Source of the DNA: Escherichia phage vB_VIPECOOM03
Sequence record: OQ721911
Length of the DNA: 64,000 nt
Strand: one strand, 5' to 3'
Positions 6,957 through 29,682 of the stretch are shown here, piece by piece. How positions within the stretch are numbered: position 1 is the stretch's first letter; every line of letters starts with the position of its first letter. The notes beneath the pieces are model-generated. The model ran no database searches. It worked only from the letters and a program-made list of their open reading frames with translations, and was not told where the DNA came from. The position numbers were made by a program, and so were the translations under genes.

Positions 6957-7594
6957 TGAATGAACCCCAATTACTAATTGAAACTTGGGGTCAACCTGGC
7001 GAAATTATTGATGGTGTGCCAATGCTTGAATCCCACGATGGAAAAGACTTAGGTTTAAAACCTGGTTTATACATCGAAGGAATATTCATGCAAGCGGAAG
7101 TCGTCAATAGAAATAAACGTCTTTATCCAAAACGCATATTAGAAAAAGCGGTAAAAGACTATATCAATGAGCAAGTTTTAACTAAACAAGCTCTCGGAGA
7201 ATTAAATCATCCTCCACGCGCTAATGTTGACCCGATGCAAGCCGCTATCATTATAGAAGATATGTGGTGGAAAGGAAATGACGTATACGGACGAGCTCGT
7301 GTTATTGAAGGTGACCATGGTCCTGGAGATAAATTAGCAGCTAATATTCGTGCCGGATGGATTCCAGGAGTTTCTTCTCGTGGATTAGGTTCATTGACTG
7401 ACACAAATAAAGGTTATCGTATCGTAAACGAAGGATTCAAATTAACTGTAGGTGTTGATGCAGTATGGGGTCCAAGTGCTCCAGATGCATGGGTAACTCC
7501 TAAGGAAATTACCGAATCACAGACGGCGGAAGCCGATACAAGTGCCGATGACGCCTATATGGCTCTCGCAGAGGCCATGAAAAAAGCGTTATAA
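6956..7594 (+). CDS. 21: Prohead core scaffold protease gp21
   Basis: 212-aa ORF, same size and position as T4 gp21. Confidence 0.92.
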   Translation: MNEPQLLIETWGQPGEIIDGVPMLESHDGKDLGLKPGLYIEGIFMQAEVVNRNKRLYPKRILEKAVKDYINEQVLTKQALGELNHPPRANVDPMQAAIIIEDMWWKGNDVYGRARVIEGDHGPGDKLAANIRAGWIPGVSSRGLGSLTDTNKGYRIVNEGFKLTVGVDAVWGPSAPDAWVTPKEITESQTAEADTSADDAYMALAEAMKKAL

Positions 7595-24907: not shown

Positions 24908-24910
24908 CAA

Positions 24911-24930
24911 TGGGGACCGAAAGGTCCCCA
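24911..24930. terminator. Bidirectional terminator between gene 54 (+) and the alt cluster (-)
   Basis: TGGGGACC-gaaa-GGTCCCCA hairpin with T-run downstream on plus strand, at a convergent gene junction. Confidence 0.75.
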
Positions 24931-24935
24931 TATTT

Positions 24936-25226
24936 TTATTTGCGGAATGAAATAAAAGCAGCAACTGAAGCAACTAAACTGTCTTCAATATAAACTTCAA
25001 TTTTTACCGGAGCTTCTGATTCAAATTTACCTGTTACTACACCTTGGAAAATGCTTTCAGTCTGTTCTGGCTTTGAAAAATTTTCAGAAGGAAAAATTCC
25101 GAACTTTTTATCTGTTCCAAAAATTTTGATAAATTCATCATAAACTGCTTCATTAAAAGCATTATCAGCAGGAATAACGCCTTCAACTACAAGTTCTTGA
25201 CCTAAAAAGCGCAAAGAAGATTTCAT
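24936..25226 (-). CDS. Hypothetical protein (positional equivalent of T4 alt.-3)
   Basis: 96-aa ORF with GAGGAA RBS, preceded by a GTTTAC promoter-like element. Confidence 0.65.
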   Translation of the reverse strand: MKSSLRFLGQELVVEGVIPADNAFNEAVYDEFIKIFGTDKKFGIFPSENFSKPEQTESIFQGVVTGKFESEAPVKIEVYIEDSLVASVAAFISFRK

Positions 25227-25257: not shown

Positions 25258-25287
25258 ACTATAACACAACACGAGGGACTTGTAAAC
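25258..25287 (-). promoter_or_regulatory. Early-type promoter-like element (GTTTAC -35, 18-bp spacer, TATAGT -10), copy 1 of a repeated element
   Basis: Minus-strand GTTTACAAGTCCCTCGTGTTGTGTTATAGT; about 90 percent identical over ~55 bp to the element at 41000-41054. Confidence 0.5.
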
Positions 25288-27344
25288 TACATTTTGAACT
25301 TTTTAGACATTCCGTTGATGTTAACCAAAGAAGCCAAGATTTGAGAAACTTCGTTTTCCTCTTCTTTTGATTCTTCTACAAGGAATTGATTAAATCCAGC
25401 CATTGGACGAACTTCACCAGTTTCCATCAGATGGTCGCCATCATATACCGATTCTTCTAATTGTTCAGAAGGAGGAACGATTGTGCCTTCGACTAGATAC
25501 TTATTATAAGCAGTTTCTTTCATCATGTACGTACTCACTTTATTAATCTTCAGTAGAATTCCACGTGGTAGAATAATTTCAGCTTCTGATGGAAATCCTG
25601 ATAAATGACCTGGAACGATAACTTTGATTCGCTCAGCTCCTTTAATTACCATACCAACGCTAGTTTCAGCATCTTCATTCGCATAAGCAGAGCGACTGCC
25701 CATATGCATCAAATCTTCTGCGTCAACTGAACCTTCTCCTTCACCAGAAAATACTGCACCGGAATCATCTAGAGCCATATAGTTTTTACCATACTCACCG
25801 AAGATATTTGGTTTAAGCGATGTGGATACGAAGTTCTTGAAATAAAACATTTTATTTTCAATATTATGGCGTAAAGTTTTGAAAGTAACTTCTTGTCCAC
25901 GGTAAAGTGTAGTTCCTGGAGGAAGAACTGAACCTTTAGCAAAGGCAGAATCCATTGTCTCGATGTGTTTAATAGCTCGTTCCATATATTCTTCACGGGT
26001 AGAATCTGGTTTACCTAAAAGGAACGAGTTCATTTCAACATATGAATCTGCACAATAATCTTCAATTACATCAGATTCAGCTTGAGTCAGTCCTTTTGGA
26101 GTTACTTCGGTGCTTGCGTATTCATATGCCTGGGCGGCAGATTCATTAATCAATTTATAAATGCCATTCATGACAAATTGAATAATAGCTACCTTTTCAT
26201 CTGGCGTGGCTTTAGAACCTTTAACTAAATCATTAACAATTTTCTTAATAACATCAAAGCTGTTAGAAATATTAATATCAGAAAGATCACTTAAAATTTT
26301 ATCAGTTTTATAATCAAAAAATTCTTTATTCTTTAAATATTCTTGAGAACCTTGATATGTTATATCGCTCTGTAATTTAATAGATGGATCACGTAAACGT
26401 GCATGAGCCAATGCAATATGATTTCGGAAGCTTTCTAGTTCATAATCGTTAGATTTAAAACGAGAAGCGCTTCTCATACCACCTATAGCTCCTTTGCTGA
26501 AGTTTGAACCAATTTGAATAACGCCAGAGTTCATTGATCCTTCTGCTTTATATACCGGAACTTTAGATTCAAACTCTTGATATTTCTTAGCAGCGAAGCT
26601 ATCGCCCTGAAGTGAAGCATCAACAGTAGAATATTGAGCTTGTGCTGCTAATCGACGACTAATTTTAGTTTTCTGAATAACAGCTTGATCCGTGCGCTTA
26701 TCATTTTCTAAAGCAATAGAAGCAGCAACAGCAACAGCTTTAGGAACAGCATTACCCGTTTTAACGTCTACATAAACATCACCAACCTTTGATTCAACTT
26801 TTGTGAATAACTCAGTTGAAATAGGAGGTACACCTGGAATGTCTTCTAAATTGGCATTTTTACGGTAAACCATAATATATGCATACTTTTTATCGTAATC
26901 CCAGATTTCCTTTAAAAGAACATATCGACCTGCTCCTTTAGTACGTACTAAACGGTCGGCAATAACTTGCATTTGACGAGCTGCGCCGTTTGTTTTACTC
27001 TTTAGTACGCGGAATAAGCATGCATCAATTTTATACTGTTTCATTGTTTGAAGAGCAGTATCAAAAACCGCATTAATGACACCAATTGGGTTTCCACCCA
27101 AGTTTTTAAGTTTAACTAATGATAGTTTTTCATTGACACCTATCATTACGATATGCATCATTTTATCGCCTGGCTTAACGTTTTTATTTGTATCACCACC
27201 AGAGGTGTATGTACAAAATCTAAATCCAGGAAGCACACTTTCTTCACCGGCTTGAATAGCAAAAATTTGAGGTATTTTATGCTTAGGATTTAAGTTAACA
27301 ACCGGCGCCGAAGCGCCGTCAAATAATTCTGTAATAAGTTCCAT
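25287..27344 (-). CDS. Alt-like ADP-ribosyltransferase paralog (R-S-ExE motifs)
   Basis: 685-aa ORF; N-terminus MELITELFDG... closely parallels the adjacent alt; C-terminal region has YRGQ, FVSTSL and EAEIILPRG motifs. Confidence 0.85.
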   Translation of the reverse strand: MELITELFDGASAPVVNLNPKHKIPQIFAIQAGEESVLPGFRFCTYTSGGDTNKNVKPGDKMMHIVMIGVNEKLSLVKLKNLGGNPIGVINAVFDTALQTMKQYKIDACLFRVLKSKTNGAARQMQVIADRLVRTKGAGRYVLLKEIWDYDKKYAYIMVYRKNANLEDIPGVPPISTELFTKVESKVGDVYVDVKTGNAVPKAVAVAASIALENDKRTDQAVIQKTKISRRLAAQAQYSTVDASLQGDSFAAKKYQEFESKVPVYKAEGSMNSGVIQIGSNFSKGAIGGMRSASRFKSNDYELESFRNHIALAHARLRDPSIKLQSDITYQGSQEYLKNKEFFDYKTDKILSDLSDINISNSFDVIKKIVNDLVKGSKATPDEKVAIIQFVMNGIYKLINESAAQAYEYASTEVTPKGLTQAESDVIEDYCADSYVEMNSFLLGKPDSTREEYMERAIKHIETMDSAFAKGSVLPPGTTLYRGQEVTFKTLRHNIENKMFYFKNFVSTSLKPNIFGEYGKNYMALDDSGAVFSGEGEGSVDAEDLMHMGSRSAYANEDAETSVGMVIKGAERIKVIVPGHLSGFPSEAEIILPRGILLKINKVSTYMMKETAYNKYLVEGTIVPPSEQLEESVYDGDHLMETGEVRPMAGFNQFLVEESKEEENEVSQILASLVNINGMSKKFKM

Positions 27345-27347
27345 GAT

Positions 27348-29444
27348 TTATCCTTGAACGAACTTGTAAGGCATGTTTGTAATATCTATGCAAGACGCAA
27401 TAATTCCAAGAGATGATTCTGCTTTCTGTTTAACATTTGATGAAACAAATGATGCAAAGTCAACTCTGTCTTCTATTTCAATATCACCTGTCATTGCAAC
27501 CAATTCACCAGTTTCCATTAAATGGTCTCCATCATAGATTACCGATTCGGTGAGTTCTTCCGTAGTCATAACTTCAGCTTGAATGAGTTTTGTATTATTA
27601 GATGTTGTTCCGTCATTATTGGAAGCATCAGTTATTTTATTAACTTTGACCATCAATCCGCGTGGTAAAATAACTTCAGCTTCAGTTGCTATTCCGAGAC
27701 TTCCTGGATATACAACATTAACTTTATGAGCTCCATCAATTGCCCATCCTATTTGAACTTTAACGTATTCAGGATTTTCTTTATACGCTCTTATTTCGTT
27801 TGGATTAATAGTTATTCCTTCTTCATTTTTATCAACTGTTAATTCATTGCGAGCTTCTGGTTCTAAAAGACCAATACCAGCATGCGTAATTCCAAAACGT
27901 CCAAAAATGATAGGAGTTAAAGAAGTAGATACAAAATTTCTGAAATAGAACACTTTATTTTTAACTAGTGCTTCGTATATAGGAGCAGTCATACTTTGAG
28001 CACGATAAACTGTAATGCCTTCTGGTATACGGTCACCATTTTCAAAGGCTGAATCTAAATTATTTATCGCAGATTCAATTTCTTTTTCACTCATTACATC
28101 ATATCGTTCTGGATTATAGCGTCCTAAAAGAAGATTATTGATGTCAGTATATCCTGATCCACAATACTCTCTAATGCCGCGCTTTTGCGATGGAGTATAT
28201 TTAGAACCATCACGGGCAATAGTAATATCAATCATTGGACCTGCACCAATTCCAGAAAAGCTATAAATCATTCGTTTGAGGAATTTAGTTTTTGCTGCGT
28301 TCCAGGAATTTTTAGTTATTTCTTCCCAGACTTCATCTGGCTGTCCTTTACGGGTTTTATTATGTTTATCAAGCCAAGTATCTTTATATTCTTCAAAGAA
28401 TTTATTAATAGCTGCTGCATACTTCTCTAAACATTTTATTGAAGTAGTTGGTTCATTTTTGATCGCGTTAAAAATTACATCTTTAATTTTTTCAGAAACT
28501 TCATTAACCTCACTTTTTGAAAAGAATTTATAGTCATAGTGAAGTTCATCTGCAGTCCCTTCGGCAATAATTTTTGCTGCCTTAGTTTTAGAAGCTAATG
28601 AATTAATTCCAAGTTTCATTTCTTCCGCTTCGGGAATTAAAGGAGCTGTAGCAGGTTTATTGAAATTAGCTGCAGTAGATTCATACTTCTGGAATAATTC
28701 ACTTTCAAATCTAGAAGATTCCAATGACTGACTTTGTGCAATTGCTCTACGGGAAATTTTAACTTTAACTATTACAGCTTGGTCAGAACGTTTATCGTTT
28801 TCTTGCGCAATAGATGCTGCAATTGCCTCATTTTTAGTTACTTGAGCTCCAGTATCTTTATTGATATAAACATCGCCGACCTTCGATTCAACTTTAGTAA
28901 AGAGCTCGGTACTAATTTCTGGAACTCCTGGAATGTCTTCTAGTGATACATTTTTGCGATGTATAAGAATATATGCATACTTTTTATCGTAATCCCAGAG
29001 TTCCTTAAGAAGGACGTATCTGCCACCTGAACGACTACGGATAAGTCTATCAGCAATAACTTGAATTTGTCGAGCTTGACCAGCAGTTTTAGACTTAAGA
29101 ATACGGAGCATACAGGCATCAATTTTATACTGACGCATCGTCTGCATTGCAACAGTAAAAACTGAATTGATATAATTAATTGGGCTTGGACCGAGACCTT
29201 TTAATTTAGCAATTGAACCTTTAGCAGTTAATGTAAAAGGAACAATATGCATCATTTTATCGCCCATTTTTAAATCGCGATTAGTATCACCTCCAGATGT
29301 ATAGGTACATAAACGAAAGCCTGGTTGTTCAATTGCGTCATCAACATGAACTGAAAAAATTTGCGGTATTTTCTTCTTTGGATTTAAGTTTGTAATCGGA
29401 AGAGTAGTATCTTCGTCAAATAATTCTGTAATGAGTTCCATCAT
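27348..29444 (-). CDS. alt: Alt ADP-ribosyltransferase (capsid-packaged, modifies host RNA polymerase)
   Basis: 698-aa ORF; N-terminus MELITELFDEDTTLPITNL... as remembered for T4 Alt; ART motifs YRAQ, FVSTSL, EAEVILPRG; ATG at 29441 is an alternative start. Confidence 0.9.
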   Translation of the reverse strand: MMELITELFDEDTTLPITNLNPKKKIPQIFSVHVDDAIEQPGFRLCTYTSGGDTNRDLKMGDKMMHIVPFTLTAKGSIAKLKGLGPSPINYINSVFTVAMQTMRQYKIDACMLRILKSKTAGQARQIQVIADRLIRSRSGGRYVLLKELWDYDKKYAYILIHRKNVSLEDIPGVPEISTELFTKVESKVGDVYINKDTGAQVTKNEAIAASIAQENDKRSDQAVIVKVKISRRAIAQSQSLESSRFESELFQKYESTAANFNKPATAPLIPEAEEMKLGINSLASKTKAAKIIAEGTADELHYDYKFFSKSEVNEVSEKIKDVIFNAIKNEPTTSIKCLEKYAAAINKFFEEYKDTWLDKHNKTRKGQPDEVWEEITKNSWNAAKTKFLKRMIYSFSGIGAGPMIDITIARDGSKYTPSQKRGIREYCGSGYTDINNLLLGRYNPERYDVMSEKEIESAINNLDSAFENGDRIPEGITVYRAQSMTAPIYEALVKNKVFYFRNFVSTSLTPIIFGRFGITHAGIGLLEPEARNELTVDKNEEGITINPNEIRAYKENPEYVKVQIGWAIDGAHKVNVVYPGSLGIATEAEVILPRGLMVKVNKITDASNNDGTTSNNTKLIQAEVMTTEELTESVIYDGDHLMETGELVAMTGDIEIEDRVDFASFVSSNVKQKAESSLGIIASCIDITNMPYKFVQG

Positions 29445-29464: not shown

Positions 29465-29472
29465 TATTTATA
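29465..29472 (-). promoter_or_regulatory. T4-type late promoter (TATAAATA on minus strand) for alt
   Basis: Plus-strand TATTTATA about 20 bp upstream of the alt start; Alt is a packaged late protein. Confidence 0.6.
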
Positions 29473-29477
29473 AAATT

Positions 29478-29495
29478 AAAGGCCCGAAGGCCTTT
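29478..29495 (-). terminator. Hairpin (AAAGGCC-cgaa-GGCCTTT) downstream of the gene 30 / alt.1 unit
   Basis: GC stem with GNRA-like tetraloop, followed on the minus strand by a T-rich tract. Confidence 0.55.
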
Positions 29496-29682
29496 AATAA
29501 TCTAGTGGTAAGAGAGTACGGTATATTTCAAACTTCGGACCTTTTTCATAGGCATCAAATGTTTCTGTAAATTTATTATAAGCATATGCATCTACAAATT
29601 CAAGAACGATTTGTGATACAGAAGTAGAAACATCTCCACCTTCTTTTTGAGCCACGACAATTGTTTCTAAGTAAGCTTTCAT
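29494..29682 (-). CDS. Hypothetical protein (positional equivalent of T4 alt.1)
   Basis: 62-aa ORF overlapping the gene 30 stop. Confidence 0.6.
   Translation of the reverse strand: MKAYLETIVVAQKEGGDVSTSVSQIVLEFVDAYAYNKFTETFDAYEKGPKFEIYRTLLPLDY

Follow-up and report, generated by a model that had tools for sequence, protein, structure and literature searches.

A tandem pair of alt genes in a T4-like Escherichia phage predicts two divergent Alt-type ADP-ribosyltransferases

We analysed a 64,000-nucleotide (nt) stretch of the genome of Escherichia phage vB_VIPECOOM03 (sequence record OQ721911; this whole stretch is called the window below), in which two adjacent genes of the T4 Alt family, here named altA and altB, lie head to tail. 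Together they probably form a two-gene late operon encoding two packaged and injected arginine ADP-ribosyltransferases (ARTs) with different targets. The analysis covered gene integrity, motifs, selection, fold, distribution and rearrangements, from which we infer expression, packaging, cleavage, activity and the difference in targets.

Both copies have the sequence hallmarks of T4 Alt. A sequence-only reading of this DNA had placed two adjacent Alt-type open reading frames (ORFs) of 685 and 698 amino acids (aa) on the minus strand, and the ORF list agrees, with a spacer of 3 nt between the genes. The altA ORF opens with ATGATG (29439-29444, minus), as does T4 alt at positions 7501-7506 of the NC_000866 excerpt L001, and GAGG lies 2 nt 5' of the first ATG and 5 nt 5' of the second. 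Starting at the first, at 29444, gives 698 aa (27348..29444); the second, at 29441, is the start used by GenBank and T4 Alt and gives 697 aa. The choice is of little weight, because T4 Alt loses its first 6 residues. Pfam family PF03496 (ADPrib_exo_Tox) matches altA with an E-value of 1.7e-37 and altB with 4.1e-20, phrog_802 matches both end to end (E 5e-273 and 6e-255, respectively), and close relatives bear precomputed PF26846 and PF03496 assignments. With full-length identities to T4 Alt of 72% for altA and 43% for altB, both are homologues of that protein. They also occupy its genomic position, between DNA ligase/alt.1 and alt.-3/gene 54 and behind a late promoter. The two copies are 41% identical to each other over their full length (BLASTP E 1e-164; about 41-44% across comparisons).

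The catalytic R / STS / ExE triad was said by the same reading to be retained in both copies, and each motif could be located by position: YRAQ at residues 479-482, STS at 505-507 and EAE at 587-589 in altA, and YRGQ at 481-484, STS at 507-509 and EAE at 587-589 in altB. R482, S507, E587 and E589 (altB numbering) are invariant in a 36-sequence alignment reaching down to ~28% identity, and the catalytic residues are likewise invariant across a separate set of 16 relatives. These intact motifs, with the PF03496 and phrog_802 matches, uphold the description of the genes as tandem Alt-type ADP-ribosyltransferase paralogues. The ART domains are of the C3/VIP2-like fold; the AlphaFold2 (AF2) model of altB has a predicted local distance difference test score (pLDDT) of 79, and a search of the altB sequence against solved structures gave no match at E 0.01 or better. 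The E577A mutation of T4 Alt abolishes all ADP-ribosylation (PMC11404850). This residue is the second Glu of the T4 Alt ExE motif only if counted from the first ATG; the RefSeq protein starts at the second. In both Alt copies the distance from STS to ExE is ~80 residues, and the inserted segment is acidic and wholly different between altA and altB; in C3 exoenzyme ~36 residues lie between the two motifs.

Similarity between the copies is concentrated at the N-terminus. In a per-domain comparison (bounds 1-238, 239-415, 416-625 and tail), identity is 68% over residues 1-238, drops to 18% over residues 239-415, and amounts to 36% in the ART domain and 42% in the C-terminal tail; the earlier reading had described a near-identical N-terminus with a diverged centre and C-terminus. 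The N-domains are basic, with isoelectric points (pI) of 9.5-9.7, and the ART domains acidic (pI 5.1-5.2). Within the ART domain, the residue at position -5 of ExE, in turn 1 of the ADP-ribosylating turn-turn (ARTT) loop, is aromatic in altB (SGFPSEAE) and most of the family, and non-aromatic in altA (LG-IATEAE) and T4-type Alt (SLAPSNEME). Judged by this residue, altB is closer to the family norm and T4 Alt, the well-studied member, is derived; the difference hints at different substrate recognition by altA and altB.

Comparison with other phages shows altB to be a conserved separate lineage under strong purifying selection and not a decaying duplicate, which suggests a working gene. Relative to T2, in which both alt genes are intact, altB has 90 synonymous and 19 non-synonymous differences, and the ratio of non-synonymous to synonymous substitution rates (dN/dS) is 0.05; for altA it is 0.053. 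The altB-specific 1331 nt are found in ~400 phage records, T2 included (≥90% identity, ≥80% coverage), and the protein cluster closest to altB comprises 772 sequences 685 aa in length. The 4158-nt region holding both genes matches Escherichia phage vB_VIPECOOM01 with 100% identity (OQ721909.1, Tequatrovirus; window coordinates equal OQ721909.1 coordinates minus 96000), where GenBank labels both ORFs "Alt-like RNA polymerase ADP-ribosyltransferase". The earlier reading had singled out a frameshifted copy as the finding that would undo it; neither ORF is frameshifted in the window, and it is in T4 that such a copy occurs. That precedent, a downstream copy surviving as a pseudogene remnant, is what could make one suspect that here too the second copy is a pseudogene, or else an artefact of assembly or annotation. 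The chance of this is next to negligible given the uninterrupted 685-codon ORF, the same gene in so many independent records and the low dN/dS. A repeat-collapse artefact is also implausible, because the copies are only 68% identical in DNA even in their most similar part.

The T4 remnant itself can be derived from an altB like that in the window. In the T4 record alt.-1/alt.-2 are annotated as 'an old duplication of the first part of gene alt'. Translated, they correspond to altB residues 1-54 and 62-116, and the DNA follows the first ~116 altB codons almost base for base. Two lesions separate T4 from an intact gene. One A is missing from an A5 run at codon ~54, giving a -1 frameshift, and a ~1.7-kb deletion lies between 9-10-bp direct repeats, CTAAA(G/A)AGT, ending at the last altB codons. 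The T4 sequence jumps from ...GTACTAAA(A)AGT to those last codons; as read in the window, the deletion sites are CTAAAGAGT on the left and CTAAAAAGT on the right, and the deletion start falls in the N-terminal shared domain of altB. Because the deletion joins the start of altB to its last codons, alt.-1/alt.-2 are the remnant of a full-length altB and not a partial duplication. The same junction is common to 91 of 499 matching records. The window shows neither lesion: the A5 run is intact and the ORF has its full 2058 nt.

A second kind of rearrangement fuses the two genes. Several sequences closely related to altB begin with an altA-type N-terminus. ECML-134 and Yersinia phage PST each have one 686-aa gene between alt.1 and alt.-3; metagenomic contig L007 has one 684-aa hybrid in the same place, and contig L006 a 686-aa hybrid directly after alt.1, the contig ending just past it. 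Informative-site analysis puts the crossovers at nt 297-300 in PST, 442-475 in ECML-134, 546-558 in L007 and 660-669 in L006, every one of them inside the shared N-domain, and the ECML-134 breakpoint coincides with the longest run of identity between the paralogues, 32 nt at altA nt 443-474. The four different crossover points imply at least four independent unequal crossovers. Hybrid phages retain the B effector only.

The expression signals point to a single transcription unit. A minus-strand sequence consistent with a packaged late protein had been noted ahead of the upstream copy, and the T4-type late promoter TATAAATA does lie there, 23 nt upstream of the altA ATG at 29441, where it precedes the whole pair; the window holds 17 copies of this sequence, with 7.7 expected by chance. 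Directly upstream of it, a terminator-like hairpin (-13.5 kcal/mol, z -3.36) follows alt.1. The same element occurs in T4, and a conserved terminator upstream of alt was noted by Nolan et al. 2006 (PMC1524935). A scan of the window for exact late-promoter matches found no second TATAAATA between altA and altB, and we rejected a separate late promoter for altB on that ground; a scan for sigma-70-like promoters stayed at background (17 found, 18.3 expected). Since no second late promoter precedes altB, the two genes look like one late operon. The altB ribosome-binding site (RBS; AGGA) lies within the 3' end of altA, 6 nt ahead of the altB ATG, and altB, with no promoter of its own, would depend on read-through from altA.

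T4 Alt is a core protein of the head present in ~40 copies (PMC9026906), and the gp21 protease cleaves it at two sites, ITE-6 and LTE-619, the second cut taking off 63 C-terminal residues (PMC5694885). A motif scan finds MELITE in T4 Alt, altA and altB alike, and at the C-terminal junction LTE at 617-619 in T4 Alt, LTE at 630-632 in altA and LEE at 629-631 in altB. Among the 36 aligned relatives E6 is invariant, E631 is conserved in at least 90%, and the L/I-x-E form is kept at both sites in nearly all. Residues 1-9 and 629-636 of the altB model have pLDDT below 50. Cleavage at these sites would leave mature proteins with predicted masses of 70.2 kDa for altA and 69.2 kDa for altB. Packaging and processing of altB are thus likely. 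One could instead suppose that altB is made late but left out of the head, acting in the producing cell or serving as a non-catalytic structural core protein, since late expression alone is no proof of packaging and we found no AltB virion proteome in the literature searched. Such a protein would hardly be expected to retain the whole N-domain and both gp21 junction motifs used by T4 Alt; in the hybrids, moreover, the B effector is the sole Alt cargo and is joined to an A-type N-domain, and the invariant catalytic residues speak against a purely structural role. We judge this alternative improbable.

The following course of events can be proposed. The single late promoter would drive altA and altB, with altB translation initiated at the RBS within the altA 3' end. 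The basic N-terminal ~238 residues common to both proteins, with the ITE-6 and LxE junctions, would direct them into the prohead core, where gp21 would trim both ends to give roughly 69-70 kDa mature proteins. AltA and AltB would then be ejected with the DNA into the next host, and their divergent middle and ART modules, 14-38% identical and with different ARTT turns, would use NAD+ to modify different sets of host proteins.

Several points weigh against two injected enzymes with separate targets. Cleavage motifs of the L/I-x-E form are short, we found no virion proteome or biochemical study of the altB protein in the literature searched, and a search of the literature for altB function or a link to defence gave nothing specific. 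The difference in targets is read from sequence divergence and one ARTT position. T4 alt is non-essential (PMC9026906), the T4 lineage no longer has altB, and the hybrids no longer have the altA effector; because of these losses the two copies may be partly redundant rather than specialised. In its full form this alternative makes altB a largely redundant spare that would share its activity and essentially all its targets with altA and be kept only for dosage, so that either copy can be lost. It fits the viability of phages lacking one effector (T4-type phages without altB; ECML-134 and PST with the B effector only) and the fact that both copies have the ExE typical of Arg-specific ARTs. It sits badly with middle domains that are 14-19% identical, ART domains that are 36-38% identical and different ARTT turns; lineages that are distinct across genera and both under strong purifying selection are also unexpected for a simple dosage duplicate. 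We consider redundancy on this scale unlikely, and two injected transferases with different targets the probable arrangement.

The effector part of altA has a history of its own. Codons 1-240 and 601 to the end are near-identical to T4 Alt (dN ~0, dS 0.08-0.22), whereas codons 241-600 are a different allele (dS ≥1, dN 0.28-0.68), and the middle domain is 31% and the ART domain 66% identical to T4 Alt. The altA effector module is of T2/JS10 type, not T4 type; in the phage collection the window's type occurs in 341 records and the T4 type in 175. The Dhakavirus JS10 has the order alt.1-alta-altb-alt.-3, named so by its authors, with the same neighbours and the same 3-nt spacer. For N-domain, middle, ART domain and tail, respectively, altA is 46, 68, 94 and 55% identical to JS10 altA, and altB 46, 45, 59 and 59% identical to JS10 altB. 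N-domain identity is thus higher within a genome (65-68%) than between orthologues (42-47%), whereas the effector parts track the A and B lineages. This pattern speaks for concerted evolution or repeated exchange of modules and against simple vertical descent. Recent gene conversion between the copies in this genome was considered and rejected, as N-domain dS is 1.05-1.8 and DNA identity 67.7%. The altA effector DNA is 77.9% identical to JS10 over 1450 nt, compared with 64-67% in flanking genes, which is suggestive of module exchange between genera; it could instead reflect stronger constraint.

In a functional analogy that makes no claim of family membership, the locus has the architecture of a polymorphic toxin, with a conserved N-domain, variable effector modules and recombination in the conserved part. 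It appears to evolve like a cassette of delivery domain plus cargo, in which N-domain homology serves unequal crossovers, short direct repeats serve deletions, and several effector alleles circulate. We tentatively propose, as a possibility somewhat short of even, that AltB, missing from T4, acts as a second injected effector on host targets of its own, and that the alt locus is a cassette in which a phage-specific N-terminal domain of 238 residues, co-evolving inside each genome, would deliver ART cargo interchangeable between genera. The cassette view is supported by an altA ART domain 94% identical to that of JS10 next to an N-domain 46% identical.

Coordinates are collected in Table 1. Downstream of the pair, the alt.-3 homologue at 24936-25226 (minus; 96 aa, phrog_1739; DUF5498 in relatives) has its own sigma-70/early-like promoter-like site at 25258-25286 (minus), TTTACA-17-TATAGT with TG, starting at the altB stop codon. 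A hairpin at 24910-24931 is a bidirectional terminator common to this gene and gene 54. The alt.-3 homologue is kept in all states of the locus: tandem pair, T4 deletion and hybrids.

Table 1. Features of the alt locus and related segments (window positions unless another record is named)
Feature	Position	Strand	Remarks
altA, upstream Alt paralogue, T4 alt orthologue	27348..29441	minus	697 aa; Pfam PF03496
altA N-terminal shared domain, residues 1-239	28725..29441	minus	~100% identical to T4 Alt; 68% to altB; pI 9.5
altA ITE-6 propeptide	29424-29441	minus	inside N-terminal domain
altA ART domain	27564..28202	minus	YRAQ 27996-28007, STS 27921-27929, EAE 27675-27683
altA LTE 630-632	27546..27554	minus	motif scan; aligned with T4 gp21 C-terminal site LTE-619
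altA middle and ART module aligned to JS10	27499-28940		JS10 excerpt L005 6688-8129; 77.9% DNA identity
altB, downstream Alt paralogue	25287..27344	minus	uninterrupted 685-codon ORF, 2058 nt
altB N-terminal shared domain, residues 1-238	26631..27344	minus	pI 9.7
altB ITE-6 propeptide	27327-27344	minus	inside N-terminal domain
altB all-helical middle domain, residues 239-415	26100..26630	minus	model secondary structure; 18% identity to altA, sequence-unrelated
altB ART domain	25470..26099	minus	YRGQ 25893-25904, STS 25818-25826, EAE 25578-25586; ARTT turn with Phe at -5 of ExE
altB LEE 629-631, predicted gp21 C-terminal cleavage site	25452..25460	minus	low-confidence linker
T4-type late promoter TATAAATA, serving both alt genes	29465..29472	minus	exact match
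Terminator-like hairpin, after alt.1, directly upstream of late promoter	29475..29498	minus	10-bp stem, UUCG loop
T4 remnant (alt.-1/alt.-2)	NC_000866 excerpt L001 5066-5451		corresponds to window 26997-27344 + 25287-25306
Hybrid gene, ECML-134	L008 2501-4561		
Hybrid gene, Yersinia phage PST	L009 2501-4561		
Hybrid gene, metagenomic contig	L006 5001-7061		
Hybrid gene, metagenomic contig	L007 5001-7055		

The tandem arrangement is old, common, and already annotated and published. Nolan et al. 2006 count T4 alt.-1/alt.-2, among other ORFs, as paralogous alt duplications, with 44RR ORF187c as an apparent full-length one (PMC1524935), and Jin et al. 2014 report Alt duplications for JS98, Bp7, Ac42 and ZZ1 (PMC4177764). 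The pair is therefore not new, as GenBank annotates both genes, JS10 names alta/altb and these two papers report alt duplications. What the present comparison appears to add is the origin of T4 alt.-1/alt.-2 from a full-length altB, the at least four hybrid crossovers, and the contrast between a shared N-domain and divergent effectors.

Knowledge of injected phage ADP-ribosyltransferases comes largely from T4 Alt, and T4 represents a minority state at the alt locus: ~400 sequenced relatives have a second, intact enzyme whose effector module differs, and roughly two thirds bear an altA effector allele unlike that of T4. Because T4 is without a gene that is present in T2 and most relatives, the question of the activity, packaging and targets of altB becomes sharper. 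If AltB has its own targets, host takeover by T2-like phages would depart from the textbook picture drawn from T4, and most T-even phages, T2 included, would deliver a never-studied enzyme. For engineers who wish to deliver cargo from T4 heads, the common N-domain and the propeptides are also of interest.

Among known systems, ModA and ModB belong to the same R-S-E ART clade as Alt and are not injected from the phage head (PMC5512222). The T4 enzymes differ from both Alt copies in being 200-207 aa long, lying in another genome region and having no N-domain; at 685-697 aa and with several domains, altA and altB are not early ARTs of the ModA/ModB type. BLASTP of ModA and ModB against both Alt copies gave no significant similarity (best E 0.4), and a joint tree with them was rejected, as neither is significantly similar to either copy. 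Compared with R-S-E toxins of the C3/VIP2/Vis/iota type, both Alt proteins have ~415 extra N-terminal residues, comprising basic alpha/beta and helical domains, and a ~45-residue insertion between STS and ExE, and would be delivered from the phage head instead of secreted, with propeptides at both ends. Also among known systems is T4 Alt (NP_049811), an NAD+:arginine mono-ADP-ribosyltransferase in the head that acts on RNA polymerase alpha and other host proteins; it has the same genomic slot, late promoter and upstream terminator as the window locus and shares R-S-ExE and the ITE-6 and LTE cleavage motifs with the window copies; T4 differs in having no intact altB. In JS10 (Dhakavirus) the same two-gene tandem of altA and altB is found, window altB being orthologous to JS10 altB and window altA matching JS10 altA.

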